A stretch of DNA of 64,000 nucleotides. Source: a virus. A program made the position numbers and the translations under genes. This document shows positions 3,223-31,104 of the stretch, piece by piece. The notes below the pieces were generated by a model. The model was not told the origin of the DNA, ran no database searches, and worked only from the letters and a program-made list of their open reading frames with translations. The stretch lies in the IMG/VR virus record IMGVR_UViG_3300037189_023236. One strand, written 5' to 3'. How positions within the stretch are numbered: the stretch's first letter is position 1; the number at the start of each line of letters is the position of its first letter.

Positions 3223-3290
3223 CTGATAGCAAAAGAAAACCGGGAGGGCTGGGGCTTGTTAGGCCCCAGTGAATCTCCGGTGGTTTTCTT
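3223..3290 (-). terminator. Hairpin terminator with conserved TTTTCTTTTGCTATCAG tail (T1)
   Basis: Long interrupted stem, U-tract and GCTATCAG downstream of ORF 3297. Confidence 0.75.
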
Positions 3291-3296
3291 ATTTTT

Positions 3297-3593
3297 TCAG
3301 CCGTACACGATACGACCCTTGGGCGTGATGATCACACCCGTGAGCCAGCCGAAGCTGTCGCGCTCGCCACACACGACCTTGAAGCCCTCCGCTGCCAGCT
3401 TTTCGTGCTGGGCGATGTTAGGGCGGCCGTTGGGGTGGATGAGCGCTTCGGGCGCCAGATAGTAGCAGACGTCGCGCAGGCTCTCGGGGAGTTCTTCCGA
3501 GGGCCCGTCCGTCAGATACTCACTCGGCGTGACCGCGGGATCCTCGAGAACTTTCTTAATTCCCTCAATGAGCGCCGCGAGCTTTTCGTCCAT
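3297..3593 (-). CDS. Phage hypothetical protein (cassette A)
   Basis: AGGAGAC RBS; the C-terminal GERDSFGWLTG...KG.IVYG motif resembles small myovirus proteins. Confidence 0.75.
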   Translation of the reverse strand: MDEKLAALIEGIKKVLEDPAVTPSEYLTDGPSEELPESLRDVCYYLAPEALIHPNGRPNIAQHEKLAAEGFKVVCGERDSFGWLTGVIITPKGRIVYG

Positions 3594-3662
3594 GGTATTT
3601 GTCTCCTATGCCATGGGTGTTGAACTAGCGCTTTGATTGGGTGGCTAGATTACCCTCATTTA

Positions 3663-3690
3663 ATATGCCCGAATACGCGTATGTATTTAG
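3663..3690 (-). promoter_or_regulatory. Repeated promoter-like box CTAAAT-N15-GGCATAT (P1)
   Basis: One of seven exact copies with identical 15-nt spacing, all at gene boundaries and all pointing in the coding direction. Confidence 0.75.
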
Positions 3691-3713
3691 GCGTGCGCGT
3701 ATACGTGTAATCC

Positions 3714-3756
3714 CTGATAGCAAAAGAAAAGCGCACAGGGTTTCCCCCGTGCGCTT
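3714..3756 (-). terminator. Tailed terminator (T2)
   Basis: AAGCGCAC...GTGCGCTT stem followed by TTCTTTTGCTATCAG. Confidence 0.8.
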
Positions 3757-3778
3757 CCCTTTGGCCGCGTGGGCCTGA

Positions 3779-4126
3779 TCACTCACCGAAGCCGAGGCGG
3801 CTGCGGACGGCCCCGTCGGCGTTCTCGAGACCGCGGGCCGAGCGGACCAGCATGCCGCCCTCGAGCCGGGTGACCTGCGAGGCCAGGGCGTCGACCGTCT
3901 GATCCGCGAGGACCATGACGGGCGCCATCGCCTTGCCCTTGGACTGGGCGCCGATCACGACGCCGAGGCCGCCGATCACCGCGATGAGGCAGGCGGCGCC
4001 GGTGAGGAACTTGCCGTTGTCGTAGAGGTACGACACGGCCTCCCAGCCCTTCGCCTTCGCCTTCGCCCACATCTCCGAGATGCGGCTGGGCTTGGTGGCG
4101 GCGGGAGTGGTGTTGATGGTGGACAT
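3779..4126 (-). CDS. High-GC membrane protein (cassette B)
   Basis: AGGAGAC RBS and one hydrophobic segment; G+C is 90/120 over 3781-3900. Confidence 0.75.
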   Translation of the reverse strand: MSTINTTPAATKPSRISEMWAKAKAKGWEAVSYLYDNGKFLTGAACLIAVIGGLGVVIGAQSKGKAMAPVMVLADQTVDALASQVTRLEGGMLVRSARGLENADGAVRSRLGFGE

Positions 4127-4217
4127 GGTTCAGTCTCCTATGGCTTAGGGCGCCATTAACCCGGGGGAGACATGGCCCAGCAGCCTTGCCGGGGAACACC
4201 ATAATCTTCCTTATTTC

Positions 4218-4245
4218 ATATGCCGGGATATGGCCCGATATTTAG
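4218..4245 (-). promoter_or_regulatory. Promoter-like box (P2)
   Basis: CTAAAT-N15-GGCATAT, abutting the tail of T3. Confidence 0.75.
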
Positions 4246-4363
4246 CTGATAGCAAAAGAAAACCCGCCACACTCCCCACACACGGGTGTTCGTCGTGTGT
4301 GAGGAGGGGCGGGTCCGGAGACGAGAGGCGCTAAAGCAAAGCTAAAGCAGCCACCTCTATGTC
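4246..4363 (-). ncRNA. Candidate ~110-nt structured small RNA (ORF-less cassette C, includes terminator T3)
   Basis: Lies between P3 and a tailed terminator; forms two hairpins and has no substantial ORF. Confidence 0.5.
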
Positions 4364-4391
4364 ATATGCCCTGATTTTAGCAGAAATTTAG
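4364..4391 (-). promoter_or_regulatory. Promoter-like box (P3)
   Basis: CTAAAT-N15-GGCATAT. Confidence 0.75.
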
Positions 4392-4395
4392 CTGG

Positions 4396-5298
4396 CTACG
4401 CACTACCTTTTCCGAAGCTAGCATTTCCCGTGACATTCTGCGCAAACGTGGGGACGCCATTTCGGGTATTCAGCGGGCCTTTCATACCCAATGGATTCGA
4501 CGCGGGGCTGGCCATGGAGGGTTTATTTGCGGCTACTTGCGGAGAAGTTCCAGCATATGTGGCAACGGGGCCGGAATTCTGCTGTTTTTTATCGGATCCG
4601 GCCGGGGGAAACATCATGGCCTGCTGCAAAGCATAGGCGCGTTGCATCTTCAGCTGTGAAATTCCGTCTTGTAAATTTTTTACGTCAAGACCGACGTTTT
4701 TCGGGGAATTGTCGCTATCGTGGGGCTGGCGGTGTTTTTTGCCCAAGCGAACGACAGCTGCGTATTTGGAAAACAATCCACCCAATTTCTGCAAAGTCGG
4801 CTGAATCTCCGGGTCCGCGATATTAAACGCTTTTTCCACGCGATCCTTCACATTGCTGACATTCGTCGGGCATTTGTTTTCCGCAGAATTACTGTCTTTT
4901 TTATCGCTTTTGACCGTAACAGACTCCTCTCCCGCAGCTACTGGTTTATCGCTGTGGGGGACATTTAATTCCTGAAGAATCGAGATGCTTTTTTTAGCTA
5001 TTGCAGCGGATTTTTCGGGGGTGGCCGTTGGGGTATTTACCGACAAAGACCGCGCAAAGGCCTGAGAAATTCGCGGTTGAGATTGGCCGTAGTGCGTAAG
5101 AGCCTGAGTTAAAACAGCCAGGGTAGCCTCTTTTTTGTTCATTTTTCCGCTCTCATCCTCGTTATTATCTAAATTCTCAGTTTCGCGCGCATACGTCGGT
5201 AAATTCTTTTGATTCGGGTACTCGTGCGCCCAGCGTTTTGCGATATCTGGATGCTTGAGCCACAGGAATCTACGTTGTTTTTCGGATTTGAATGGCAT
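4396..5298 (-). CDS. Hypothetical phage protein
   Basis: The N-terminal MPFKSEKQRRFLW..HP.IAKRW motif is familiar from phage proteins; the remainder is low complexity. Confidence 0.7.
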   Translation of the reverse strand: MPFKSEKQRRFLWLKHPDIAKRWAHEYPNQKNLPTYARETENLDNNEDESGKMNKKEATLAVLTQALTHYGQSQPRISQAFARSLSVNTPTATPEKSAAIAKKSISILQELNVPHSDKPVAAGEESVTVKSDKKDSNSAENKCPTNVSNVKDRVEKAFNIADPEIQPTLQKLGGLFSKYAAVVRLGKKHRQPHDSDNSPKNVGLDVKNLQDGISQLKMQRAYALQQAMMFPPAGSDKKQQNSGPVATYAGTSPQVAANKPSMASPASNPLGMKGPLNTRNGVPTFAQNVTGNASFGKGSA

Positions 5299-5353
5299 AG
5301 CTCACCACTAGCTCCCAAGCTGAATAAAGCTATTTTCGCAGAATGAGGGGAGT

Positions 5354-5575
5354 TTAGTCCAGCGATAGATTTCGAGAGGCGGCGTCGTCCCAAATAGCCT
5401 GCTGAATATCCTGAATTATTGCTTTCACTTCAGGCGGGTGGTCTTCGTATTTAACTTTTCCGCGCATGTATTCCAACGCATTTTGCAGCACGATTCTGTA
5501 ATCCATCGCCGCAACAGCCGTATGAAACTCGTAATGCTCTTCCGGCAATTTAAACGACAAAGTAGCTCTAGGCAT
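5354..5575 (-). CDS. Small phage hypothetical protein
   Basis: GGAGG RBS; ATL.F.LPEE..EF motif. Confidence 0.7.
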   Translation of the reverse strand: MPRATLSFKLPEEHYEFHTAVAAMDYRIVLQNALEYMRGKVKYEDHPPEVKAIIQDIQQAIWDDAASRNLSLD

Positions 5576-5608
5576 ATGACACCTCCGTGGGATCTGCAAA
5601 ATATACGC

Positions 5609-5634
5609 GTTTGATATCGACCTACAAAGACTGA
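5609..5634. repeat. 26-bp direct repeat, copy 1 (GTTTGATATCGACCTACAAAGACTGA)
   Basis: 24/26 identical to 6670-6695 and 20/23 identical to 7612-7634. Confidence 0.8.
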
Positions 5635-5635
5635 T

Positions 5636-6601
5636 TTAAACGCCATTTGCAGATACAAACCAGCGTGCAGTTCGCTGTAGGCCGGTAGCCAATTTAACCG
5701 CAGGCCGCCAACCAAGCACCCGGCCGGCTTTTGCAGCGTCGACAAGATTGGATCTGAGATCGCCTGCGCGAGCCGGAGCATAAATCGGCGCAGGTAGGTG
5801 ATATTCAAACACAACCTGGCGCAACTCCTGCCGAATAACCGCCTCAATTTCGTTTACATCCGCGCCAATACCCGTACCAATGTTCAAACTAGTGAGCGTG
5901 CCTGCTGGTGTTTCTACAGGAGCAGCTGTGAGCGCGAGAATATTGGCGCGAGCAACATCTGACACAAAAACGTAATCCCGGATGTATTTACCGTCGCCAT
6001 TTATTGTGGCTGGTTCGCCGGCAATCAGTTTTTTGCAGAATATTGCCACAACGCCAGCTTCTCCATGCGGATTCTGGCGCGGACCGTAGACATTCGAATA
6101 CCGCAGCGCAATGCCGATAAATCCATACTGTTCGGCGTAGAACTTCAAATAGCGCTCGCCAACCCATTTTGTAATGCCGTAAGGACTGATTGGATTTGCC
6201 GGCGTTGTTTCTGGCGCTGGCTTGGTGACGTCGCCGTAGAACACACCACCGCTCGACGCAAACACAAAGCGACTGCATTTGTGCGCTACGGCAGCATTGA
6301 GCACGTTTATGAGGCCAATGCAATTTACCTGCGCGTCGAAAAGCGGATCGCGCACAGAAAGACTCACTGACATTTGCGCCGCCTGATGGCACACAACGTC
6401 AGGCTGTTCTTGATCAAACACGTCGCGCACAGCTTTTCCGTCGGTGATATCGACAACGTGTAGCGGCACAGCTGGCGGCAGATTGTTTTTTGAGCCGCTG
6501 TAGAGATTGTCGATAACCGAGACGCTATGGCCGGCTGCTAATAGCCCGTCGACGATGTGACTGCCGATAAAGCCTGCGCCGCCTGTGACTAACACTTTCA
6601 T
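5636..6601 (-). CDS. NAD-dependent epimerase/dehydratase (UDP-glucose 4-epimerase-like SDR)
   Basis: TGGAGFIGS, YGITK (YxxxK), RYSNVYGPRQ and RDYVFVSDVA motifs. Confidence 0.92.
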   Translation of the reverse strand: MKVLVTGGAGFIGSHIVDGLLAAGHSVSVIDNLYSGSKNNLPPAVPLHVVDITDGKAVRDVFDQEQPDVVCHQAAQMSVSLSVRDPLFDAQVNCIGLINVLNAAVAHKCSRFVFASSGGVFYGDVTKPAPETTPANPISPYGITKWVGERYLKFYAEQYGFIGIALRYSNVYGPRQNPHGEAGVVAIFCKKLIAGEPATINGDGKYIRDYVFVSDVARANILALTAAPVETPAGTLTSLNIGTGIGADVNEIEAVIRQELRQVVFEYHLPAPIYAPARAGDLRSNLVDAAKAGRVLGWRPAVKLATGLQRTARWFVSANGV

Positions 6602-6669
6602 GTGTTTCTCCAATTGCTGCGAATAAGTAACGCAATATCCTGAAATACTAGTTGATCCGATAAAATAGA

Positions 6670-6695
6670 GTTTAATATCGACCTACAAAGATTGA
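6670..6695. repeat. 26-bp direct repeat, copy 2
   Basis: GTTTAATATCGACCTACAAAGATTGA. Confidence 0.8.
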
Positions 6696-6702
6696 AAAAA
6701 CC

Positions 6703-7167
6703 ATGATGCTAATTCGCCCCATGCGCATGTTTGATATCGCTGCGGTTTGCAAGCTGGCCGCCGATAACTATCCAAAAAACTATTTGGGTAGCGAAGAAGC
6801 GCTTGCGTCGAAAATAACCGGTTACATGCGCGGCTGTTTTGTGGCGGAAATCGCCGGCGAAATAGTCGGTTACATTATTTCGGGGCCTGGAATCATCGGG
6901 CAGTATAGCGAGCGCGACGAGTTTTACACACCGCCGAGTAATGCAGATTGTCTGTATATCCACGAATTATGTATCAAGCTTGGTTATCGCGACCGGAGAG
7001 TCGGGAGCAAGCTTTTTACACGTGTCTTGGATTTTGAATGGTGGCCCAAAATATGCCTCGTAGCGTTTATGAGCGCAGGCGGTTGGTGGCGGCAATTTGG
7101 ATTTCGACACGTGTGCTCCGTTGAATATTGCGACGCCGTGGCCGAATACATGCGCCTCGACCGCTGA
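6703..7167 (+). CDS. GNAT-family acetyltransferase
   Basis: CFVAE...IVGY, LYIHELCI...YRDRRVGSKL (acetyl-CoA motif A) and WWRQFGF. Confidence 0.85.
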   Translation: MMLIRPMRMFDIAAVCKLAADNYPKNYLGSEEALASKITGYMRGCFVAEIAGEIVGYIISGPGIIGQYSERDEFYTPPSNADCLYIHELCIKLGYRDRRVGSKLFTRVLDFEWWPKICLVAFMSAGGWWRQFGFRHVCSVEYCDAVAEYMRLDR

Positions 7168-7229
7168 TAGCAAAAGAAAAGCGCCGGCGAGGCGGCGTAA
7201 CGCTTTTGCGGTGCCCGGATTCCGCTACC
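7162..7229 (-). terminator. Two-hairpin 3' element with tailed terminator (T4)
   Basis: Near-duplicate of 7635-7709 except in the loops. Confidence 0.75.
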
Positions 7230-7235
7230 ACAGTT

Positions 7236-7544
7236 TTAGAACTCGCCGTGTAGGGCGGTGAGATACACGTTCAACCGCATGTATCCGTGCGCCTCTGGAT
7301 GCAGGAACTGGTAGTCCTGGCCGTCCAGAATACGACGGCCAAGACGCGATCTCACCGTGAGGCAGATCCCATCCCATTCTCGGCGGGGACGAATCGAGGC
7401 GCGCACCTCGACTTTGTAGCTGGCGCAGAAAGCAACCAGCTCGGCCTCTTTCCATTCGATCGCCATGCTGTGTTCTTCGCACAGCTTGGCAATCGACTTG
7501 AGCGCCGCGACTTCCGTGTCGAGATATTGATCGGTGGAAAGCAT
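7236..7544 (-). CDS. Hypothetical protein (cassette D)
   Basis: AGGAGAC RBS; lies between P4 and T4. Confidence 0.7.
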   Translation of the reverse strand: MLSTDQYLDTEVAALKSIAKLCEEHSMAIEWKEAELVAFCASYKVEVRASIRPRREWDGICLTVRSRLGRRILDGQDYQFLHPEAHGYMRLNVYLTALHGEF

Positions 7545-7582
7545 ATTCGTCTCCTTTCGAAAAAAGCTGGACCACCCAGTTT

Positions 7583-7610
7583 ATATGCCCGAATATCCTG
7601 GAATATTTAG
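7583..7610 (-). promoter_or_regulatory. Promoter-like box (P4)
   Basis: CTAAAT-N15-GGCATAT. Confidence 0.75.
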
Positions 7611-7611
7611 T

Positions 7612-7634
7612 TTTGGTATCGAGCTACAAAGATT
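7612..7634. repeat. Direct repeat, copy 3
   Basis: TTTGGTATCGAGCTACAAAGATT. Confidence 0.65.
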
Positions 7635-7709
7635 CGCTGATAGCAAAAAAAAAAAGCGCGTTAGGAGGGCCGAGCACGCGCTTTTGCGGTGCCATGGGTT
7701 TCCGCTACC
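7635..7709 (-). terminator. Two-hairpin 3' element with tailed terminator (T5)
   Basis: AAAAGCGCGT...ACGCGCTTTT stem, U-tract and GCTATCAG. Confidence 0.75.
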
Positions 7710-7715
7710 CATTAT

Positions 7716-7940
7716 TTAACTCTGCAACCAAGCGAGATCTTTTTGACGGTGCAGCTCTTGTGCTTGCTCCACCGTCAGGCCAATCAGCTCCTCGGGCTTG
7801 AACTGGATCTCGTCGACGTAATAAGCCAACAGCTGGACGAAATCCTCCGCGCCCGACAGCCTAACGCGCACCTTCGCTGTGTCGCCAAACTCTGCCGGCG
7901 GATCAATCAACGCCTGCACGATCACACTGGGCTCGATCAT
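7716..7940 (-). CDS. Small hypothetical protein
   Basis: AGGAG RBS before ATG 7940; YY.DEI.F..EELIGLT motif. Confidence 0.7.
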   Translation of the reverse strand: MIEPSVIVQALIDPPAEFGDTAKVRVRLSGAEDFVQLLAYYVDEIQFKPEELIGLTVEQAQELHRQKDLAWLQS

Positions 7941-8020
7941 GAAACACTCCTGTTGGGAAAGAAAAAACGCGAGGCTGTTAACCTCGCGTTTGCGAAATGA
8001 TAACGCGCTAGCGTCATCTA

Positions 8021-8392
8021 TTATTTGTCGGTCGTGAACGCCGCCGACTTTTTCTCGAGTTCGTTTGCAGCAGCTTGCACCGCGGAGCCCCTGTCGTAGC
8101 CGGCGTGCCAGATCTCGTTGTAATACTCCGGCCGTTCGGCCGCAGACACAACGCCGGCTACGAACCAACGCGTGTGGTCCGCTTCATCTGCTACGCGCGC
8201 CTGCTGCAGTTCGTACGTGATGTCTCGAATCTGATCGTCGGCGATCTTCATCGCTTCCTTCGTGATTCTGAGCTCATCTCGCAGTCGGTTGGCGTCAAAC
8301 CAACTGTTGATTGTGATCTGCAGTAGCACAAGCGATAGGCAGCACGTGATCACCGCCAGGAACTCAGAAAACGTCATTTTTCTATCCGTCAT
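8021..8392 (-). CDS. Hypothetical protein with N-terminal TM segment and coiled coil
   Basis: AAGGA RBS and a hydrophobic N-terminus. Confidence 0.7.
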   Translation of the reverse strand: MTDRKMTFSEFLAVITCCLSLVLLQITINSWFDANRLRDELRITKEAMKIADDQIRDITYELQQARVADEADHTRWFVAGVVSAAERPEYYNEIWHAGYDRGSAVQAAANELEKKSAAFTTDK

Positions 8393-8420
8393 TTGAAGAG
8401 TCCTTTCTTGTTAAACACCA

Positions 8421-8615
8421 TCACTCAACGTGCGACGATACACGTTGATACGATTCAATGCAGGATACGAGTCTTTTCCACAGGTTTTCCTCCCGCGGCG
8501 TCAACTCATACCCCGCCTCCTCAGCCTCTCGAACGCGGTCCACCAACCCTAACGCGCTATGATAGTCGAACTTATCAAGCGCGTTTCGCAGTTCCGTTGC
8601 GAATTTTGCCGGCAT
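8421..8615 (-). CDS. Small hypothetical protein
   Basis: AGGAGG RBS. Confidence 0.65.
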   Translation of the reverse strand: MPAKFATELRNALDKFDYHSALGLVDRVREAEEAGYELTPREENLWKRLVSCIESYQRVSSHVE

Positions 8616-8765
8616 GGCACCTCCTATGCCTTTTTCTTTTTCGGTTTCCTGGTTTCGTACTTAATGCTCGGCAGGGCTGTTGTTTTCTCTTTTTTACGGT
8701 CAGCCCACCAAGTATTGTTCCACTTTTTTGCGCCGTCAGATGCCATACACGCCGCACTCCAATTA

Positions 8766-9137
8766 CTACCCGATCTTCAACGAGTCCGGCAGCATATCCT
8801 TCTTGGGATTGTACTGCAAGAGCTGTTGCAATTTGGGAAACCGCGCAATGACCCCGATAACGATACGCCGAGCATCGCCGGACTCAATCGTCGGTTTGGT
8901 GAAGTAGTTCGCTTCGAGCGTCGTGAGGCGAAACATTTCCACCAGCAAATCCCACCGTTGGTTTTCATTGAGCCGCTCGATGGCTCGCCGAAAATACGTC
9001 TCGTCATCTTTGGCGTCCTGGTCCAGCAAAACCTCGCCGGCCTGCCAGAACTGGCAAAGACCGAACGCGAAATCCGCAATCCTGAGCGCCATGTAATCCT
9101 TGTAGGCCTTATCGGTCATGCGCTTTTTACGCGTCAT
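8766..9137 (-). CDS. Hypothetical protein (start uncertain)
   Basis: ORF tiles between its neighbours. Confidence 0.6.
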   Translation of the reverse strand: MTRKKRMTDKAYKDYMALRIADFAFGLCQFWQAGEVLLDQDAKDDETYFRRAIERLNENQRWDLLVEMFRLTTLEANYFTKPTIESGDARRIVIGVIARFPKLQQLLQYNPKKDMLPDSLKIG

Positions 9138-9139
9138 GC

Positions 9140-9772
9140 TTAATCCCATAGGGCTTCGTAATATTTGCCAAAAAGCGTAAGCCCGTGCCGCTTTCTGGCT
9201 TCCCATTTCTGATAGCCTTCTTTGTCAAAGTCTATCTTGCCGCCGAACACATCGTTCGAATCCGTCGGATGATGTTTGAAAAACTGGGAATCTGAATCCT
9301 CGTCCACAACCTGATGAAACGCCCAGATCATTTCATCAAGCACCCAGTCCCACCGCTTGAAATGATTCTCGTCGATATGCCCTATGGCCGCTTTTTCAGG
9401 TGGCAAGGGCGGCGTGGCAGTAGACCGCAACTCCTCCGGGACGTCGCTATCGTCCACGTATGGGCTGCCGATCTTATTCTTTTTCAGCAGTTCGAGCGTG
9501 GGAAGAATAATAAGACCAAGCGAGTGATCTGCGCTCCACACATCGTAGTCATGAATGCGCACGCGGATTTTACGCTTAGTCCGCGCGTCTACCCAATCAT
9601 CGATCGGCCGAAGCCACCCAAACCATTTGCGCACAAATGCTACGCGCTGCTCGTATCGGTCGAGCGCCTTGGCTTCGTTGTCTTGTTTTCGATCAGTCGC
9701 CCAAAAAACCAACCGCTTTGCCCACGCGTATGGGTTAAACCAGTTGTTATACGGTCCGATGTAAACCTGCAT
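9140..9772 (-). CDS. Conserved myovirus-type hypothetical protein
   Basis: M.VYIGPY, D.WS.DH.L..II.P.L and RWDWVLDEMIWAF motifs. Confidence 0.8.
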   Translation of the reverse strand: MQVYIGPYNNWFNPYAWAKRLVFWATDRKQDNEAKALDRYEQRVAFVRKWFGWLRPIDDWVDARTKRKIRVRIHDYDVWSADHSLGLIILPTLELLKKNKIGSPYVDDSDVPEELRSTATPPLPPEKAAIGHIDENHFKRWDWVLDEMIWAFHQVVDEDSDSQFFKHHPTDSNDVFGGKIDFDKEGYQKWEARKRHGLTLFGKYYEALWD

Positions 9773-9803
9773 TCAGCCTCCGTTGTTGATGCCGTCAATC
9801 CAG

Positions 9804-10161
9804 TGGACCCGGCGGGAGTCGAACCCGCGTCCAGAGACAGATTGATAACAGACGTCTACGTGCGTATCTAGGTATTTAATCTCGTTTGCGCAGCTCCACC
9901 CAGCGGGATATGCAGCAAACCAGCCCAGAACGTATTTAGGCGCAGCAGTACCAGGCAGTGTGCTGCGCCGAGTCGGATTTGGCGACCGCTTAGAAAACCC
10001 TTCCGACTGGGGCTAACTTCGCGGGCTACCGACCTTTTGGGTCAGGCAGCGAGAGCAAGAGGAGCGCCTCTTAGCGTTTGGTCTGCTTTTAACGTGGCCA
10101 ACAGACCAACCACGGCACGCGATCTGAAATCTCACCATCCTGTCGATACCAGTACGGGCCC
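9804..10161 (-). ncRNA. ssrA: tmRNA (tag peptide (A)GAPLALAA)
   Basis: The 5' end is GGGCCCGTACTGGTATCGAC and the 3' end is GCGGGTTCGACTCCCGC-CGGGTCCA, giving an acceptor stem with a G3:U wobble. The tag ORF at 10068-10042 ends LALAA-stop. Length 358 nt. Confidence 0.93.
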
Positions 10162-10163
10162 AG

Positions 10164-10237
10164 TGCTCAAGGTGGGAGTCGAACCCACAACAAATAGATC
10201 CTAAGTCTATCGCCTCTGCCAGTTGGGCTACCTGAGC
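10164..10237 (-). tRNA. tRNA-Leu(UAG), short variable loop
   Basis: Cloverleaf with anticodon arm ATAGA-CTTAGGA-TCTAT; 74 nt; no encoded CCA. Confidence 0.88.
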
Positions 10238-10245
10238 AAACCAAA

Positions 10246-10464: not shown

Positions 10465-10591
10465 TGAGATATCCTCCCATGAAGGCTAAAACAAGAAGCA
10501 ATATAACGCCTATAACCATCGCCTGCGCGAACTCGGCGTCTGGCGGTTTTTGTGGCGGCCTGTATGTCACGTGCTTTCTCCCTAAAGAACA

Positions 10592-10664
10592 TGACCCCAT
10601 GGGGATTCGAACCCCAGTATCCACCGTGAAAGGGTGGTGTCCTAGGCCTCTAGACGATGGGGCC
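10592..10664 (-). tRNA. tRNA-Glu(UUC)
   Basis: Cloverleaf with anticodon arm CCACC-CTTTCAC-GGTGG. Confidence 0.93.
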
Positions 10665-11625: not shown

Positions 11626-11970
11626 TTACTCTGCCTGCAGTTTCGTGTTCCGCCTCCAGTACGTCACACCATTTAGCCACCGCCACTGCAGCCGGCGAAA
11701 AAACCGCCTGATGACGCGCTTGATTTTGTGCCATCGCGTGTTTAGGCCGTGCGCGTTGATATAGGCCGTGTAACTGCGCATTACCTCATCGTCGGACAGG
11801 CCTGATAGCAAATAAATATCGCACGCTGTGCAATAATCGCACGGGATGTTGCTTACCGGCACTTGGTGAAGTTTGCCGTCTACACGCATACCCCATACGT
11901 CATTCAGCACAGCCGACAGCATCCCGGCGCCGCACATGGGGCAGCTTACTGTTTTGATTTTTCGCGTCAA
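11626..11970 (-). CDS. YgiT/MqsA-type zinc-ribbon protein
   Basis: CPMCG...VSNIPCDYCTACD pattern; TTG start overlaps the upstream stop. Confidence 0.6.
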   Translation of the reverse strand: MTRKIKTVSCPMCGAGMLSAVLNDVWGMRVDGKLHQVPVSNIPCDYCTACDIYLLSGLSDDEVMRSYTAYINAHGLNTRWHKIKRVIRRFFRRLQWRWLNGVTYWRRNTKLQAE

Positions 11971-12498: not shown

Positions 12499-12509
12499 TA
12501 GCTCCTCGC

Positions 12510-12536
12510 ATAGCTAAAGAAAACGCGCGCATGGGG
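12510..12536 (-). terminator. Tailed terminator (T6) whose stem encloses tRNA-Leu(UAA)
   Basis: 12525-12536 is the inverted repeat of 12616-12627, followed by GTTTTCTTTAGCTAT. Confidence 0.6.
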
Positions 12537-12619
12537 TGGGGCTGGTGGGAATCGAACCCACACGGGATTACTCCCAGCGGATTTTAAGTCCGCTGCGGCT
12601 GCCGTTACGCCACAACCCC
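12537..12619 (-). tRNA. tRNA-Leu(UAA)
   Basis: Cloverleaf with a long variable arm; anticodon arm GCGGA-CTTAAAA-TCCGC. Confidence 0.93.
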
Positions 12620-12632
12620 ATGCGCGCAAAAA

Positions 12633-13238: not shown

Positions 13239-13301
13239 CTACGCGCTGGTAGCTAAAAAAAAAAGGAGCAAGTTTGCCTTTTTTTAGCTACCAGCGCGTA
13301 G
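13239..13301. repeat. Perfect 23-bp inverted repeat made of two terminator tails (T7)
   Basis: CTACGCGCTGGTAGCTAAAAAAA / TTTTTTTAGCTACCAGCGCGTAG. Confidence 0.85.
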
Positions 13302-13346
13302 TTGATAAATGTATTTGTATGTATTGCGTTTTTTACGCGCCATCTA

Positions 13347-23713: not shown

Positions 23714-25639
23714 CTACGGCCCAGGCGGTAGCGGGCCTTGTCCGCCGGCTGGCTGGCCATACTGCTGCGCCATAAGCTGCGCGCCGCCTTCAACCTGCGC
23801 TTGTTGTCGGATGTCTTCGATCATGCTGCGCACTAGTGCGTGCATTGTGGGATCTGTCTTCTTCAGTTTGATAAGCTGGCTGTCTTTTACAGACTCAGGC
23901 AGCGACAGTATCTGCTGCGCAAGCAACTGCGCTTGAGCTTGCAAATCCTCTGGTGTGCGCGGCACATTTGGCGTATTTTGTCGCTGCATGATGAACTGAT
24001 CGACGGGATTCGCTGGCGGGCCGGGCGGGGCGGGCGTCATGCCCGGTTGTTGCGGCATCCCTGTCGCCCCCGCGCCCGGAGCGCCTACGCCGCCAACTGC
24101 TGGGCCGGCGGACTGTGAAAGCGCGTCCATCTGCTGCGCCTGTTCCATCTCGCGCTGCATTTTGGTTTGTTCTTCTGCGTAAATCTTTTCTTCTTCGAGA
24201 AGCTGCTTTGTCTCTTCGTCGTAGTCGAGTCCGATAGATTTGAGGCCCGTGGTCTTGCTGATTTGCTGACCCATCATCAGCTGCAGCTTTGCCATCTGCC
24301 GGTTTAGATCGTCTGCGTGCGTTACGCGCATTAGTCGCACAGCTGCCGGCTCCCAAGATTTAACTCTGGCAACAGCAGACGCGACATTCGCCAGAAAACG
24401 GTTTAAATTGTGCGGTAAATGCGCCCAGTTTGCCTCGAACAATCTAAGCGCCGCAGGGGCAGCTTGCATCGTCAAGCTTCCGTTAAACAGCTCAACCGGC
24501 ATACCGATACACTTCAACAATGTGTCAAAGCCCTGATCTAACAGGTCTTTCGGCGCAAGCTGTGATGCATCGCCGCCAAGTGCCTGATAATTGACAGGAA
24601 ACGGTAACACGTTCCAGCGGGCCGGGTCAAGCCTTCGTGCGCGCAGCATTGCCTGTACGCGCCCGGTAAAATTGCTGAGATTAATCGTATGTACGGGATC
24701 GCTTGAAGCTGCGTCGCCGCCGCGTGGCGCCGGCGTGATTACGCGAAACGGAATAACGTAATCCAAGGCAACAGCCTCGTTGTAGCGCATGAGAATCTGC
24801 ACATACCAGGCTTGCCGAAAGTTAGCCAGAATACGAGATATGCCCCAGCCGCGATTACGTAAACCAGCGAGCGCGTCTTCTTTCAGATGAAAAATGACGT
24901 CCTTGTCGAACATCAAATTCTGGTTGTCTTTGACAGCTTGAATTACTTCCCAGCTGGCGCGCTCCAAGTGGTGCAAATGCCCCTGTCGAATTAAGGCGCG
25001 ATACTCTTCAGAAATGCGCCACACATATCTGACTTCGTCGGTATACGGATCCCAAATCAGTTCCATCTCATGCGGATTCCACCGCTTGATTTTGAGATCA
25101 CCGGCGTCACCACTTCGCCGGTCGATATGCGTCCACGGGCCGGCATAATGACATTGCGGACAAGTGGCGTGAAACTCAAATTCTTGCCATTTGAATTTAC
25201 ACGCGGGTTTGTTGAACACTTGCGCTAGCGGCATCTCTAAGCTGCACCGCTTACAAGACAAATAGCGTTTGAACGGCACCAAAACGCTGGTAAAACTATT
25301 GCCATAGGTTAGATAGTCCATGGCGACGGAGTGCAACGCGTTTTTAATGCCTAGCGTGTTCTCAAAAAATTCGACGTACTTGTCTTTTTCTTCCCGGCCG
25401 AGTTTGTTTTTGCCGTCTTCGCTTACGTGGATGTCTGTCAAAAAATACGACACAACACGGTCAACGGCCTGCCGGTACAAGCCGTTGCAGTTCATAATGA
25501 ACTCGCACCAGCGCAGCGCAGCCTGAATCGATTCAGGCATAGAAAGCGACGCAATATCGCAGAACGGGTCCGGAAACCGGTCGTCAGCGGATACGCCAGG
25601 GCCGGAAGTGGCAAAATTATTCGAGCTTAGATAAGCCAC
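23714..25639 (-). CDS. Portal-like protein
   Basis: 641 aa with DYL.YGN.F, IFHLK..L.G...GWG and a Q/P-rich tail, a general large-phage portal pattern. Confidence 0.6.
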   Translation of the reverse strand: MAYLSSNNFATSGPGVSADDRFPDPFCDIASLSMPESIQAALRWCEFIMNCNGLYRQAVDRVVSYFLTDIHVSEDGKNKLGREEKDKYVEFFENTLGIKNALHSVAMDYLTYGNSFTSVLVPFKRYLSCKRCSLEMPLAQVFNKPACKFKWQEFEFHATCPQCHYAGPWTHIDRRSGDAGDLKIKRWNPHEMELIWDPYTDEVRYVWRISEEYRALIRQGHLHHLERASWEVIQAVKDNQNLMFDKDVIFHLKEDALAGLRNRGWGISRILANFRQAWYVQILMRYNEAVALDYVIPFRVITPAPRGGDAASSDPVHTINLSNFTGRVQAMLRARRLDPARWNVLPFPVNYQALGGDASQLAPKDLLDQGFDTLLKCIGMPVELFNGSLTMQAAPAALRLFEANWAHLPHNLNRFLANVASAVARVKSWEPAAVRLMRVTHADDLNRQMAKLQLMMGQQISKTTGLKSIGLDYDEETKQLLEEEKIYAEEQTKMQREMEQAQQMDALSQSAGPAVGGVGAPGAGATGMPQQPGMTPAPPGPPANPVDQFIMQRQNTPNVPRTPEDLQAQAQLLAQQILSLPESVKDSQLIKLKKTDPTMHALVRSMIEDIRQQAQVEGGAQLMAQQYGQPAGGQGPLPPGP

Positions 25640-25654
25640 GATATAGATTCCGGT

Positions 25655-25828
25655 TTACTTGTTTAAAGAATCGGTCGCACGGGTCGCAGCTTGTTTGCGA
25701 AAATCGGCGTCCAGCTCCTCGATTTTATGCCGTTTATTATCCACAATTTGCGGATCGGCGCAATTCGCGGATTTAGTCGGTTCAACCTGGGGTGTTATAT
25801 CCGGGCGAACCACACCCATTTTTTCCAT
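25655..25828 (-). CDS. Small hypothetical protein
   Basis: MEKMGV...; GGAG RBS. Confidence 0.55.
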   Translation of the reverse strand: MEKMGVVRPDITPQVEPTKSANCADPQIVDNKRHKIEELDADFRKQAATRATDSLNK

Positions 25829-25829
25829 G

Positions 25830-26723
25830 TCACAGCTCCGATTCAACGGCTTTTTCAACAAGTAATACACAGAACTCGCGTTCATCATAAACATACTGAA
25901 ATCCGGTTGTATGAACAAGATACAGCCGGCGATCATTATTAATCTGTACCGCCCACGGGCGCTTGTATGGATCATTAGACGGGGGAAACCAGCGTGCGGC
26001 CGCTTGATCAAAGCGCAAGTCGTAAACGAGCACAATAAAGCCGCTTTCAGTCAAATTTTCGTCGTCAAAAGACACGTCCACAACAATATCGTGAAAAAAC
26101 GCGGGAACAGTGCCAATTCCCTCTTTTTCAAAATAAACGAGTTTGTTTGGCGGGCCGGCATTTGCTTTTTGCGAAATAACAGGAACGCGCCCAGTAACTG
26201 TTTGCTGTTTTTTAAGTCCAAACGCCGCCATTGGACTATACGTACGATCGATTGTCTCAATCGGCGCGTAATCTGTTTCTGGTATATCCTGCGGATGTTC
26301 AAGCGCGACCGCAGCTTTTGGCTTGGCGGGCGGGACGGGAGGCGGCACAGCAGTTGTTTTTTGTACGCCAGAATTAGCAATTTTTGCCAGCTCTTCAAAT
26401 GCCATAGCGGTCCTTTCTCTGACAGATACGATGTCGCTGCCTTGTACTTTACTTGCTGCGGCGGCTAAAGCTTGCGCTACTGAGCTCTTAGTAAACTGCG
26501 CCAACGTTAAGCATCGGCCGCCGGCGATATCGGGTTCTACGTTAATTACGATATGCTGCGTATCGTGCGGGTTAAAGTTTGACGGACGACCATCAACGCC
26601 GGCGGCGGACACTATTGCGCCTTTAAGTCCGCGCATACCGCGGACACCAACCGCGTCAGCCACCGATAACCCACTTAATAACTTTTCTTGTGCTGGGTCT
26701 TTGTATCCTGTTGGCGTTGCCAT
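25830..26723 (-). CDS. Hypothetical protein
   Basis: Long ORF; GGAG RBS before ATG 26723. Confidence 0.7.
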   Translation of the reverse strand: MATPTGYKDPAQEKLLSGLSVADAVGVRGMRGLKGAIVSAAGVDGRPSNFNPHDTQHIVINVEPDIAGGRCLTLAQFTKSSVAQALAAAASKVQGSDIVSVRERTAMAFEELAKIANSGVQKTTAVPPPVPPAKPKAAVALEHPQDIPETDYAPIETIDRTYSPMAAFGLKKQQTVTGRVPVISQKANAGPPNKLVYFEKEGIGTVPAFFHDIVVDVSFDDENLTESGFIVLVYDLRFDQAAARWFPPSNDPYKRPWAVQINNDRRLYLVHTTGFQYVYDEREFCVLLVEKAVESEL

Positions 26724-26730
26724 AAAAGCT

Positions 26731-26772
26731 CCGATAGCTAAAAAAAGGGGGGCCGGCTTACGCCGGCTCCCC
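26731..26772 (-). terminator. Tailed terminator (T8)
   Basis: GCCGGC-GTAA-GCCGGC stem followed by TTTTTTTAGCTATCGG. Confidence 0.8.
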
Positions 26773-27045
26773 AAAAGATTTCCTGGACAGCTGCGGGCAG
26801 ACCAGGAAGAGACTATCCTTTTTTACGTGGAAGAACAACCTGCCGTATGGGAAGCCCTTGCCGCAAACTGCGAACAATTGTTCTTTACTTGTCAGCACTT
26901 CGGCATAACAAGTCCCATTCAGCAGATACGCCACAACCAACCCAATCTCGACGTCGTCGGGAAATACCGGGATAACGCTTGGCGCGGCATCCTGTTTAAG
27001 GAGCCATGCCAATAGTTTCCCATCGGGTTGGAGAAAGTGTCTCAT
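26758..27045 (-). CDS. Hypothetical protein
   Basis: Last gene of the P7-T8 unit. Confidence 0.6.
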   Translation of the reverse strand: MRHFLQPDGKLLAWLLKQDAAPSVIPVFPDDVEIGLVVAYLLNGTCYAEVLTSKEQLFAVCGKGFPYGRLFFHVKKDSLFLVCPQLSRKSFGEPA

Positions 27046-27049
27046 ACAA

Positions 27050-28309
27050 CTACTCGCAGGCCAGCTCCACGGTCTGAGCGGGCGCTACCACATCGAACAC
27101 CGCGGGAAAGAAACCGCCCGTCGCGTAGGACGGAAGCACTCGAAGGTCGTCTGCACGGACGATTTGGATCTTCGAATACGCATGAACCACGAGCGGTTCA
27201 TACGGCTTCTTTGCCGCATCCACAAGCTCGTCGTCGGTGACGTGCTTGTGAACGGCCTTACCTGCCGGAATTGCCGCACGCATGGCGCGGATAATCACCG
27301 AGGTAGGCAGCCGATCAACCGGCACACCAAAACTCAGCGGCTTGGTCGGATCTGACAACCCGTCGATCAAGTCCGAGTCAGTGGCCATCTCTGGCAGCGG
27401 GAGCGACTCCCGCATTTTGGCGAGCAGCTGCTCGACAACAGCCTCGTCGGCAGTCATCGCCCAGTCGTCGGCCAGCCCCGCAGCCTTCAAGACATAACGC
27501 GCGGGATTCCTCGCGAGGAAGATTTTCCTCGCGGGGTTGATCTCGTGCGATCCGAGAAGGTTCTCGTAGTTCTCATAGGCCCGCTGCTGTCGGAACCCGG
27601 CAGCAATTTCGGCGTCCTTGAGAACCTCAGCGTCTCCGAATAGTTCGCCGAGTGAAATTACTTCAGCCGCTTCGCGCTTCTTCTGCGCGTAAACCGGCCT
27701 GAGCTCCGGCGGATTAATCGACTCGACCAAGCCCGCAAGCTTGGCTTCGTCGATTCTCACGGCATCGAGCATAATCAACAGCTGCGGAAGCGCGGGCGTC
27801 TGCAGCGTGTCGGTCGACTGCTCGACCGTGTTGATGAGTTCCTGCAGAAGGTTGTTGCCCGCGGTGAGCAACACATGATTCTCAGGACCATCAAGCCTCG
27901 GGAACTCGGCGCCGCGAGTCGGGGGCAGACCGAAGTCATACCACCGCTTTACGGCGTAATTTAATTTACCATTCACCGGATGGCTTTCCACCTCGGAAAT
28001 GATCAAACGATCGTGCCGCACAACGTGCAACAGCACGAACGTAGGCCGGCCACGGAACTTTGGAAGTTCCTTGTGAACCGGCCGGAACATGAAGGGGTCA
28101 TGAGCACTCCCTTGCCCCGGCAGGATTTCCATCGCAATACGACCAACTAGGCGATGCGCAATCTCGTCGTACTGGGCCATGAGATCGCGGTGTCGCTTGA
28201 GCTGCCGCGCCGTCCGCTCGTCCATCGGCGGATGCGCAGAATTTTCCGGGTTATTTTTCTTGCCCGGCTTGCGATAAGAACGAACCTGCTTTTGATTGAC
28301 CTGGGTCAT
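27050..28309 (-). CDS. Hypothetical protein
   Basis: 419 aa ORF with GGAG RBS. Confidence 0.75.
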   Translation of the reverse strand: MTQVNQKQVRSYRKPGKKNNPENSAHPPMDERTARQLKRHRDLMAQYDEIAHRLVGRIAMEILPGQGSAHDPFMFRPVHKELPKFRGRPTFVLLHVVRHDRLIISEVESHPVNGKLNYAVKRWYDFGLPPTRGAEFPRLDGPENHVLLTAGNNLLQELINTVEQSTDTLQTPALPQLLIMLDAVRIDEAKLAGLVESINPPELRPVYAQKKREAAEVISLGELFGDAEVLKDAEIAAGFRQQRAYENYENLLGSHEINPARKIFLARNPARYVLKAAGLADDWAMTADEAVVEQLLAKMRESLPLPEMATDSDLIDGLSDPTKPLSFGVPVDRLPTSVIIRAMRAAIPAGKAVHKHVTDDELVDAAKKPYEPLVVHAYSKIQIVRADDLRVLPSYATGGFFPAVFDVVAPAQTVELACE

Positions 28310-28328
28310 TCAGCTACTCCATTCTTTA

Positions 28329-28622
28329 CTAAGTATTACAGTACTTGCAATACTGCCCCCAATTCCGAAGCACGTGTTCCCGCGTGCCTAGTTTTTTGGG
28401 GACAAACACTTCACGCGTGTTATCCAACCACGCGCGTTCCGATACAAACTCAACGTTTCCATCGTAATCACGCCAACGAATTTGGCTGCCTACCTTCCGC
28501 TGAGCTTTGACAGGGCGGCCGTTATAAACAACCGCTCTGAACGTATCGTAAACTTTGTTCAACTCATTCAACCTCCAGTGGAGAAACTCCGTATTTGTTG
28601 CTTGATCAGAAAGAGATACCAC
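28329..28622 (-). CDS. Hypothetical protein
   Basis: First ORF after P7; start uncertain. Confidence 0.5.
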   Translation of the reverse strand: MVSLSDQATNTEFLHWRLNELNKVYDTFRAVVYNGRPVKAQRKVGSQIRWRDYDGNVEFVSERAWLDNTREVFVPKKLGTREHVLRNWGQYCKYCNT

Positions 28623-28627
28623 AACAA

Positions 28628-28655
28628 ATATGCCAGCATTTTGACAAAAATTTAG
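28628..28655 (-). promoter_or_regulatory. Promoter-like box (P7)
   Basis: CTAAAT-N15-GGCATAT. Confidence 0.75.
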
Positions 28656-29077
28656 CTGTCTGGATCTGGCAGAATATCGTCGAACACACCCATCCCCGCG
28701 TCTTCTTTGTCGTCAAAAAACTCGTCATTGCCGCCGGCCTTGTTTTGTTTTGGAACAGACAGCGGTGGCGGATCAGATAGATGAATGAAATCCGCGCCGA
28801 GGTATCCCGTATCGTCGGGCTCGAGCTCTGTGGTGTTTGAGTCAAATAGCGGTTTAGCGCCCCACGGCGTTAATAAATGCCGGAATGGCGGCCGAGATAC
28901 CTTGAGCTGCACGCCGGCAAAATTGAACACGCTGACGTCTTTATCCACCAACGACTTTAGCCGATTTGCCAGCGCATCTGGCGTATCAAACTGCTCCACT
29001 TTGTATTCGCCATCTGGGTACAAAATGGCGGCGTAAAACTTAATTTCTTTCAGCTGTTTGTCTGGCTTGTCACTCAT
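28652..29077 (-). CDS. Hypothetical protein with acidic tail
   Basis: ATGA overlap with the upstream gene. Confidence 0.7.
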   Translation of the reverse strand: MSDKPDKQLKEIKFYAAILYPDGEYKVEQFDTPDALANRLKSLVDKDVSVFNFAGVQLKVSRPPFRHLLTPWGAKPLFDSNTTELEPDDTGYLGADFIHLSDPPPLSVPKQNKAGGNDEFFDDKEDAGMGVFDDILPDPDS

Positions 29078-29697
29078 GTGTCACCCCTGAGTCGTTTTAA
29101 ATCATGCTCAGTAACCGGACTTATTTTGAAACCTGGTATATGTTCAGCTGCAGGCACTGTTGTGACGTATGGTGGATTATGTCCGGCCGGCGCTAGATAC
29201 GTTATTCGTTCGCGTATGAGCACGCCAAATACGTGTAACGGAATTTGCGCGCCAGAACCAATCAGCGAAGCAGTAGGATCGGGCATAGTTAGCTCATATG
29301 TTACAGCGCTGGCGTAGAAGTCGTCGCCGTGAATGCCTATGCCGCCTATAAAATTGAAGCAACTTTCCGCTATGGCGATAGGCGCGGCGTACAACCGCCG
29401 ATCCCAATCAATTTGTTTGCCGTCAAGTACAGAAACGCCAAGACCGGAAAAAAATGGATGGTGCGCCGGAGACAACTCTACGCAAAACGGCTGACTGTCT
29501 GCGCCGACATTAAATCGCGCGATAAACTCTTGAGCTGGATCAAACGGCATGCGGCCGGCAGTAACTAAAAGCGCCGGTGTAAAGCAAACAACTTCACCGC
29601 GGCGCTCGCGCATTGCTTCTAAACACGACAACCGCCTAACGGGCGCATGCTCAGTAACTGCGTCTGCCTGCGCTAAAAATTTCGCGTGCTCGGTCAT
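29074..29697 (-). CDS. Hypothetical protein
   Basis: ORF tiles with its neighbours. Confidence 0.7.
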   Translation of the reverse strand: MTEHAKFLAQADAVTEHAPVRRLSCLEAMRERRGEVVCFTPALLVTAGRMPFDPAQEFIARFNVGADSQPFCVELSPAHHPFFSGLGVSVLDGKQIDWDRRLYAAPIAIAESCFNFIGGIGIHGDDFYASAVTYELTMPDPTASLIGSGAQIPLHVFGVLIRERITYLAPAGHNPPYVTTVPAAEHIPGFKISPVTEHDLKRLRGDT

Positions 29698-29700
29698 CGG

Positions 29701-30339
29701 TTATTTTGGCGGCGTGCCGATGCCGACTTTAACCTGCTGCAAAAGCATCAACAGCACAAACGCCGCGTCGACAACGTTGTCGATTCCCTCGGCTTTGTAT
29801 TTTGCCGGGTCAAATGCCGTGTTGAAATTCTTGTTGGCGGCAGCAATCATGTCTTCTTTGTTCGCGCGACCGTTGCCGGTAGCAAACTTTTTGATTGTCG
29901 TAACGCCAAATCCCATAGACGGCAAATTCCGCTCTTGCGCCCAAGTAGCGACAGTAACTTTCATACCGCCCAGCACTTCCGATGCTGTAGCAACTCGGGC
30001 AAGAATGGCAGGAATACCGAATTTCTTATTGACAAAGAACTCACGAGGCGGCGTGTATTTCACATCTTCATAGGCTATTGCGTCAGGGGCTACAACGTTT
30101 AAAAAGCCGCGCAAACGCACAAAACGCGCGGCGCCTGAATCGAGCCCGGTGCAAGACAGATCCCATTGAAACAATTGCAATTTTTCACGAAGAAGTTTGC
30201 CGCCAGGCGTAAAGTCATAAATAGCTACGCCGCAATTGCTGCCAAGATCCAGGCCGAGGCAGCGCACACAATCGCTATCGAGCTTCGGAAGTTTTGCCGC
30301 GAACACTTCCGGATCGCGGTACATTCTGTATTTTGGCAT
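29701..30339 (-). CDS. ruvC: RuvC-like Holliday junction resolvase
   Basis: LGLDLG, IAYE, IKKFATGNGRANKEDM and DNVVDA motifs. Confidence 0.85.
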   Translation of the reverse strand: MPKYRMYRDPEVFAAKLPKLDSDCVRCLGLDLGSNCGVAIYDFTPGGKLLREKLQLFQWDLSCTGLDSGAARFVRLRGFLNVVAPDAIAYEDVKYTPPREFFVNKKFGIPAILARVATASEVLGGMKVTVATWAQERNLPSMGFGVTTIKKFATGNGRANKEDMIAAANKNFNTAFDPAKYKAEGIDNVVDAAFVLLMLLQQVKVGIGTPPK

Positions 30340-30340
30340 G

Positions 30341-31006
30341 CTACTTCCGCGTTAGTGACAATACACTGAGTACGATATCGAGAATGCTCTTCGTGTTTTT
30401 TGCCAGCTCAGGGACGGTTGGCTGCATTTTTTTCTGCGCCTCTGCAAGTTTTTCCTGCAAAACCTGATACTCAGCATACAGCGTGCGCATGCGCGACTGC
30501 AGCACGTCGTTTTTGAGTTGCAAATTAGCAATCGTCAGCTGTTTGGCTTCCGGCGTCGATTTGTAGCCGAAAAAACCCTGTACAGTTGCTGTAAAGTCTG
30601 CCATGCCAGGAGCTGCGGGAGATTCCTCGTTTACACGCGATACTTCGCGTACGGCTGTAAACCAAGCCGCGCAGAACGCTTGCCCGATAGCAGCAAAAAG
30701 AAACTGCCGGACCGGATAGCGTATATCCGTAAAGTCGCGGCGATTTAATGCCTGCTCAAAAGACGTTACAGGGTCAGAGGCGTTTACAAAATCGCGTTGC
30801 GCGCGGGCTAAAGCTTCAGCAGCTAGGCCTATCTCGTCATCTGTTATACCGGTTTCAAGTTTCCACGCCTGTACTTCCTCCGACGTGTTTTTTGATTCCA
30901 TGCTCGCAATGGCCGCAGCCATAAGCGTGGGCGTAACATAAGCGTAGTCTCTGGCCGGATGATAAACCGGGCCCGATTCGCCTTTTGGTCGGTAACCAAT
31001 AGACAT
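30341..31006 (-). CDS. Hypothetical protein with coiled coil
   Basis: AAGGAG RBS. Confidence 0.7.
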   Translation of the reverse strand: MSIGYRPKGESGPVYHPARDYAYVTPTLMAAAIASMESKNTSEEVQAWKLETGITDDEIGLAAEALARAQRDFVNASDPVTSFEQALNRRDFTDIRYPVRQFLFAAIGQAFCAAWFTAVREVSRVNEESPAAPGMADFTATVQGFFGYKSTPEAKQLTIANLQLKNDVLQSRMRTLYAEYQVLQEKLAEAQKKMQPTVPELAKNTKSILDIVLSVLSLTRK

Positions 31007-31066
31007 AACACACTCCTTGCGTTGAGAAAACATACCAGATCAATACGGCGTGTCAACCGAATATCG

Positions 31067-31104
31067 CTGATAGCTAAAAAAAAAGCCGGGATTAAATTCC
31101 GGCT
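31067..31104 (-). terminator. Tailed terminator (T9)
   Basis: AGCCGG...CCGGCT stem followed by TTTTTTTTAGCTATCAG. Confidence 0.75.

Follow-up and report, generated by a model that had tools for sequence, protein, structure and literature searches.

Promoter-early stem-loop (PeSL) cassettes have been described in the T4-type phages RB49, phi1, PST, and nt-1 (PMC2839356, PMC4122927). According to two reviews, jumbo phages that encode their own multisubunit RNA polymerase have no sigma homolog, and those that bear a sigma factor have no polymerase (PMC7824862, PMC13282480). In virions of the Salmonella phage Arash, beta, beta′, and a sigma factor are among the most abundant proteins, and the words promoter and terminator do not occur in the paper reporting this (PMC10585845). 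Here we describe putative promoters and hairpins with a conserved tail in the IMG/VR virus record IMGVR_UViG_3300037189_023236, of which a stretch of 64,000 nt was analyzed as a whole (the window). A preliminary description of this DNA had proposed that seven promoter boxes are each paired with a tailed terminator, and had explained them by a dedicated phage polymerase or sigma factor or, alternatively, by cassette-end recombination or processing sites. The explanation toward which we lean is that promoters read by the phage's own sigma factor and tailed intrinsic terminators would together delimit units that related phages can swap.

The window belongs to an uncultured, lake-derived phage with a whole genome of ~200 kb. 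Its genes run on the minus strand throughout; it carries seven tRNAs and one tmRNA, and its PolA bears a fused UDG domain. When 29 kb of the window were compared with cultured phages by megablast, no match was obtained. Relatives in IMG/VR have PolA proteins 64–78% identical to that of the window; several are 197–205 kb long, and two have terminal repeats. Our comparison set comprised three complete genomes (G005, G007, and G008), the more distant 192-kb G001, and the fragments G002 and G003. Because these six share almost no DNA similarity with the window, short motifs that are conserved among them are informative.

Putative Promoters of the Phage Family

The pattern CTAAAT-N15-GGCATAT matched the window seven times, always on the minus strand, and was absent from 100 shuffles, which bears out all seven promoter sites of the preliminary description (Table 1). 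In five relatives of ~200 kb the exact pattern was found 4–6 times per genome, always on the coding strand, and a reversed-pattern control gave none. Alignment of 26 sites from six genomes extended the motif to (AG)CTAAAT-N15-GGCATAT-N4-T(G/A), with an A/T-rich center in the spacer. The T five bases past GGCATAT is invariant (26/26) and is followed by G (19 sites) or A (7), so that a pyrimidine-purine step resembling a transcription start is conserved a few bases past the −10 box. With a weight matrix, 8–9 sites per complete genome were set apart from everything else; all of them lie on the coding strand, intergenically or at gene ends, and most stand 40–100 nt ahead of a start codon or precede RNA genes. 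The position of P1 is conserved in G005, G007, and G008, and an equivalent of P3 precedes tRNA-Lys of the tRNA-Lys…tmRNA cluster in G002, G005, and G008. A scan of IMG/VR with a 14-base version of the promoter returned >116 stretches, mostly with single matches that may be due to chance, and was not used as a test.

Two boxes with a fixed spacer, intergenic and oriented with the downstream genes, are the form expected of a sigma70-family promoter. The boxes do not match the housekeeping TTGACA-N17-TATAAT, and canonical sigma70 promoters are rare and not enriched in these genomes. By k-mer enrichment, neither a further strong promoter class nor another conserved motif of two boxes came to light. 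No GGCATAT promoter site was found in G001, which instead carries CTAAAA-N15-GTTATWAT-N4-TG in intergenic gaps, adjoining its tailed terminators. Judging from these patterns, we consider the boxes a predicted promoter class specific to the phage family, in which (AG)CTAAAT would be the −35 element, GGCATAT would hold the −10 element, and transcription would start near T(G/A).

Another conserved pattern, TCTTTGTAG(G/C)TCGATAYYAAA, occurs three times in the window (7629, 6688, and 5627, minus strand) and three times in G002 (9568, 9940, and 10901). It is intergenic and in every case precedes genes in the vicinity of the epimerase region; TTGTAG is frequently followed after 17 nt by an A/T-rich hexamer, and the pattern could be another promoter or an operator.

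RNA Polymerase and Sigma Factor in the Relatives

A search for polymerase or sigma genes, as suggested in the preliminary description, was run in the relatives, and a bacterial-type RNA polymerase together with a sigma70-family protein was present in all five of the near-complete ones tested. The sigma protein (~265 aa), conserved in the five, scores above the Pfam cut-off for Sigma70 region 3 and weakly for region 4, and SigA from PDB aligns with it across regions 2–4. A 1456-aa protein in the same five relatives joins a complete beta subunit to the N-terminal ~540 residues of beta′; in G007, the only genome in which the C-terminal part of beta′ (beta′-C) was checked, a 624-aa protein with beta′ domain 5 is encoded two genes further on. 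A stand-alone alpha-CTD was not found in the five relatives, and the single-subunit polymerase profile PF00940 gave no match, a result that carries no weight because its control matched nowhere either.

The polymerase aligns with that of phage Arash (OQ632216) over 98% of its length (32.6% identity), and similar proteins occur in the Vibrio phages D69, D148, and D181. In these cultured phages too, a promoter-like motif is biased to one strand: G(G/T)TATAAG-N5-T(G/A) was found 26 times vs. once on the opposite strand in Arash and 19 times vs. once in D69 (OZ195729). The motif copies, ~20–30 in each phage, lie on the strand with the non-structural genes and tRNAs, and a subset has CAATAA 13–14 nt upstream. 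At some sites TCAATAA lies upstream, immediately preceded by a T-run and AG, so that they look like composite terminator-promoter elements in cultured phages.

Motif and sigma factor appear to vary together. The sigma factors of the window's family and of G001 share the C-terminal helix-turn-helix segment (Pfam Sigma70_r4), and the two groups also share the upstream box; the N-terminal half of the protein differs between them, as does the second promoter box. The Arash sigma factor differs in both the C-terminal segment and the N-terminal half, and the upstream box of Arash is also different. This covariation suggests a link between sigma factor and motif. Taken with the occurrence of both polymerase and sigma in the relatives, the family-wide distribution of the motif, the one-strand motif of Arash and D69 with the same polymerase, and the rarity of canonical sigma70 promoters, it supports the first explanation of the preliminary description, and we think it likely that the boxes are read by the phage's own sigma70-family factor, probably with its own bacterial-type RNA polymerase. 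This polymerase may be carried in the virion, as in Arash.

The alternative is that a host factor reads the boxes, either an alternative sigma factor of the sigma28/FliA/SigD type or a sigma70 that a CTAAAT-binding phage activator redirects, for which MotA/AsiA at T4 middle promoters is the model. The sigma28/FliA/SigD consensus is TAAA-N15-GCCGATAA/T, and the TAAA, the gap of 15–16 nt, and the second box ending in ATAT of the phage motif resemble it. In G001, moreover, a near-consensus TATAAT lies 17 nt past CTAAAA, where region 2 of a host sigma70 could read it. We nevertheless regard a host factor as unlikely: the second box GGCATAT is unlike GCCGATAA, and the motif changes with the phage sigma over the three lineages. 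The Salmonella and Vibrio hosts use TTGACA/TATAAT, yet Arash and D69 carry TATAAG, with G in the last position, at 19–26 sites. The family's own sigma factor also needs promoters, and no candidate other than these boxes emerged from the search for conserved two-box motifs.

A sigma54 reading of the motif (GG and TG 11 nt apart; cf. GG-N10-GC) was rejected: the −12 GC lacks a conserved C, the CTAAAT box would have no role, and the motifs of G001, Arash, and D69 resemble −10 hexamers.

Predicted Terminators with a Conserved Tail

No fixed sequence is expected after the U-tract of an intrinsic terminator. In the window, GCTATCAG occurs nine times (1.36 expected), eight of them on the minus strand, and at T1–T5 and T9 it directly follows a hairpin and T-run; variant tails follow T-runs at 26731 (GCTATCGG), 13246 (GCTACCAG), and 12510 (GCTATG). 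The nine tailed hairpins of the preliminary description thus stand in eight cases, with hairpin, U-tract, and (A)GCTAYCRG immediately 3′ of it, while T6 has no local hairpin and ends in GCTATG. Two sub-types can be distinguished, TTTTCTTTT-GCTATCAG and T(7–10)-AGCTAYCRG. Stable, G+C-rich hairpins followed by U-tracts lie at the 3′ ends of units as in intrinsic terminators, the stem of T6 being a long-range one; the predicted RNA folds are mostly stable and several are far better than shuffled sequences, while T4 and T5 are no better. The hairpins at 60326, 38483, and 63517 lack the tail, as had been noted. The GCTATCAG at 9209 is preceded by neither a hairpin nor a T-run and probably reflects chance.

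Table 1. Positions of the predicted promoters (P) and tailed terminators (T) in the window.
Feature	Position	Strand	Description
P1	28628..28655	-	CTAAAT-N15-GGCATAT, then N4-TG; at the stop codon of the upstream gene; heads the unit of 97-aa, 419-aa, and 95-aa genes
P2	13347..13374	-	Heads an ORF-less unit of ~90 nt
P3	13211..13238	-	Heads a 72-aa open reading frame (ORF), together with the portion of the tRNA and tmRNA cluster that holds tRNA-Lys/tRNA-Leu
P4	7583..7610	-	Heads ORFan 7236-7544
P5	4364..4391	-	Heads an ORF-less unit of ~110 nt, ~79% identical in G003
P6	4218..4245	-	Abuts the T3 tail; heads ORFan 3779-4126 (70% G+C)
P7	3663..3690	-	Heads ORFan 3297-3593
T1	3223..3290	-	Hairpin, TTTTCTTTT, then GCTATCAG; followed by a conserved stretch containing TATAAT
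T2	3714..3762	-	Flank AAAGGGAA pairs with the U-tract, then GCTATCAG; 93% identical to the G003 terminator, cargo gene different
T3	4246..4316	-	Long hairpin, TTTTCTTTT, then GCTATCAG joined directly to P6
T4	7164..7207	-	Hairpin, TTTTCTTTT, then GCTATCAG; faces the end of possible plus-strand ORF 6703-7167
T5	7637..7685	-	Hairpin, eleven T, then GCTATCAG; ends the stretch of tRNAs, tmRNA, and ORFs
T6	12509..12627	-	12-bp inverted repeat enclosing tRNA-Leu(UAA), then TTTTCTTT and AGCTATG; ATG close behind
T7	13246..13298	-	Near-perfect palindrome; tail AGCTACCAG pairs with upstream CTGGTAGCT; same on both strands
T8	26731..26772	-	G+C-rich hairpin, seven T, then AGCTATCGG; orthologous sites in G005 and G008
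T9	31067..31104	-	Hairpin, nine T, then AGCTATCAG
Tenth site	11802..11835	-	Weak; 8-bp stem, TTTATTT, then GCTATCAG; absent from the preliminary list

Across seven genomes, tailed hairpins with a U-tract were found at 31 sites on the coding strand vs. 4 weak ones on the opposite strand. The hairpin sequences vary freely between copies; the T-run and the eight tail bases barely change, and conservation ends right after CAG. The register between the 8-base tail and the end of the U-tract is exact even among genomes without any other detectable DNA similarity, and G001, with its different promoter, retains TTTTCTTTT-GCTATCAG almost exactly. Downstream of each of the seven promoters in the window, a tailed terminator is reached ahead of any further promoter, as the preliminary description had it, and the rule also holds in G002. 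The median distance to a promoter of this class is 492 nt for tailed and 13 kb for untailed terminator-like sites, and 16/21 tailed vs. 10/71 untailed sites lie ≤2.5 kb downstream of one (Fisher p = 1.7e-7), although this comparison is weakened by a crude terminator finder and by orthologous sites counted more than once. No promoter of this class lies upstream of T9 within the window, in agreement with its earlier listing as partnerless. The exact register with the U-tract, the strand specificity, and the conservation where hairpins and even the promoter have changed argue for a function of the tail at the moment of termination rather than as mere homology for recombination.

We take the tailed hairpins to be a predicted, family-specific form of intrinsic terminator, often symmetrical and in some cases leaky. 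Many of the sites have an A-tract on the 5′ side of the hairpin and are therefore symmetrical. Leakiness had been proposed for T6 and T8: at T6 the next ATG is close, and at T8 and its orthologs the tail leads directly into the ribosome-binding site (RBS) and ATG of the next conserved gene (at T8, the distance from tail to ATG is 10 nt), so that these terminators must be leaky.

The tail would act while the polymerase stands at the termination point; a pausing step at U/G together with contacts to the duplex further downstream is one way in which it could do so. It is possible, if doubtful, that the stripped-down phage polymerase or a partner factor recognizes the tail sequence-specifically as a signal for stopping, pausing, or recycling. 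If this were true, the clade would have a private terminator code beside its private promoter code, and the two would run a small insulated set of genes independently of the host enzyme.

In read-through RNA, the tail could have quite a different role, either as a processing site or as the context in which translation of the next gene starts. Several tails do lie 10–25 nt before a start codon and extend into the RBS (T8, T6, and sites in G001 and G002), but many others precede a promoter or a long non-coding stretch with no start codon, and the bases past CAG are not conserved. We consider this role highly improbable.

Three further readings of the tail were rejected. Pairing of the tail with an upstream complement is confined to T7 and is not a general feature. 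We discarded an IHF-like interpretation of TATCAG-N4-T, since no conservation is seen in the bases downstream. Against T-run and tail being the UP or −35 element of a promoter that follows, the distance from tail to promoter ranges from 0 to ~40 nt, and T1, T4, T8, and T9 have no promoter of this class after them.

The stretch past T1 (3172–3222, minus strand; 720–760 in G003) ends in TTTCGGCTATAAT and precedes a 327-aa gene in both genomes; it holds a TATAAT-type element without the −35 box of the class. A possible 154-aa ORF at 6703–7167 (plus strand), converging on T4, would be the sole plus-strand gene of this stretch, and T4 could end transcription from both sides.

Predicted Transcription Units and Exchange of Cargo

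The units delimited by these elements carry ORFan genes and two RNAs without an ORF, along with the tRNA/tmRNA cluster; one conserved unit comprises three genes. PHROGs and Pfam yielded names for hardly any of the genes in them. The ORFans of the small units have a raised G+C content (0.58–0.70) and no homolog in any relative. The ORF-less units at 4254–4363 and 13255–13346 (both minus strand) would give predicted RNAs of ~110 and ~90 nt, with fold z-scores of −6.5 and −5.7, respectively, and the former is conserved (~79%) in G003. Promoters of the class followed by 370–1150 nt without ORF or tRNA were also seen in G005 (65059 and 72475), G007 (96349, 186929, and 187340), and G008 (151186 and 157447; promoter coordinates on the coding-strand orientation), and these stretches are candidates for further non-coding RNA genes. 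In the conserved three-gene unit, the 419-aa protein (27050–28309, minus strand) is only 24–27% identical to its orthologs vs. 43–56% for the neighboring genes; this fast-evolving gene, inside a conserved promoter-terminator unit, has no family match, and a protein atlas gave nothing usable for it.

When the unit at 4245–3714 was compared with G003, an unrelated cargo gene was found there behind the same promoter and leader (79% identity as far as the start codon) and ahead of the same terminator (93%), and the window has one extra unit relative to G003. This is the one case of a cargo swap bounded by promoter and terminator elements. The two cargo genes (3779–4126, minus strand, in the window and ~270–650 in G003) are both G+C-rich, and the one in G003 starts like a signal peptide; they may have been acquired from a high-G+C source. 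We propose that the promoters drive short insulated transcription units and that the conserved promoter-leader and terminator flanks let related phages swap cargo genes, so that promoters and tailed terminators would together build insulated, exchangeable units.

The same case speaks in part for the other explanation of the preliminary description, namely that the tailed hairpins are mainly cassette ends at the DNA level (recombination linkers or sites for a recombinase or nuclease), with the tail kept for the exchange of cargo. The conserved flanks around different cargo, the extra cassette of the window, and the G+C-rich ORFans without homologs in relatives fit this explanation, and the PeSL elements of T4-type phages work in this way (PMC2839356, PMC4122927). 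Against it, all the sites also have the standard form of a hairpin with a U-tract and lie where genes end, and the tail is strand-specific and always touches the U-tract. T-run and tail together (~17 bp) are short for homologous exchange, the hairpin sequences have not been homogenized between copies, and tailed sites also occupy conserved positions outside cassettes, e.g., T8. No recombinase turned up beside the tailed sites, though no search was aimed at recombinases or integrases. The window hairpins look like terminators, unlike the attC sites of integron cassettes. We judge that cassette ends are decidedly improbable as the main function.

Several points weigh against the explanation that we favor. 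The polymerase and sigma genes are absent from the window and were not found in the fragments G002 and G003 either; we infer only from synteny with the relatives that they lie in the window phage's own genome, outside the span of the window. The covariation of sigma and motif is only suggestive because just three lineages are available. With 8–9 promoters of this class per ~240 genes, other signals must drive most genes. The pairing of promoters with tailed terminators is only partial in G005, G007, and G008. The full GCTAYCRG tail is absent in Arash and D69, which share only the AG past the U-tract. Which enzyme reads the boxes, when the units are expressed, and how the tail acts are likewise inferred from the DNA.

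The link to polymerase and sigma is new here, as are the analysis of the terminators and the finding of a related motif in cultured phages; no published promoter for this clade was found in the literature. The motifs are a concrete candidate set of promoters and terminators for the polymerase of this clade, and the cultured phages Arash and D69 make it testable at the bench. If the tail matters for termination, it would reveal a polymerase-specific element of a stop signal. The units also mark genes and small RNAs that the phage would run as separate, exchangeable modules.

Comparison with Known Systems

A clade with both polymerase and sigma departs from the statement of the two reviews on jumbo phages (PMC7824862, PMC13282480).

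The sigma28/FliA/SigD promoters share with the phage boxes an A-rich upstream box with TAAA, a gap of ~15–16 nt, and a second box ending in ATA(T/A). They differ in that the phage second box, GGCATAT, is invariant and has only ATAT in common with GCCGATAA/T. The sigma28-type second box is also unlike GTTATWAT of G001 and G(G/T)TATAAG of Arash and D69, and the phage sigma scores 23–35 bits against the FliA/WhiG family profile (cut-off 190).

Like intrinsic terminators in general, the tailed sites consist of a G+C-rich hairpin and a U-tract at gene ends; they differ by the conserved 8-base block past the U-tract, in exact register with it. Many U-tracts of Arash and D69 contain an interrupting C and have AG after them (12/30 and 8/33 sites, respectively).

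Arash, D69, D148, and D181 are cultured and have the same polymerase layout (beta fused to the N-terminal part of beta′, with a separate beta′-C) plus a sigma factor. The promoter-like motif of Arash and D69, on one strand, is also alike in its G(G/T), A/T-rich hexamer, and conserved T(G/A). The differences are that their upstream box is CAATAA or missing, that they have 20–30 sites per genome vs. 8–9, and that they lack the GCTAYCRG tail.

The PeSL cassettes match these units in architecture. They too are composites of a conserved promoter and a stem-loop terminator, intergenic and clustered in variable regions full of ORFans; they insulate single genes, and they bound insertions, deletions, and replacements between related phages (PMC2839356, PMC4122927). 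PeSL promoters, however, are sigma70-like early promoters read by the host enzyme, whereas the boxes described here are unlike those of sigma70 and belong to a family with its own sigma factor and polymerase; in addition, PeSLs have no fixed tail past the U-tract.

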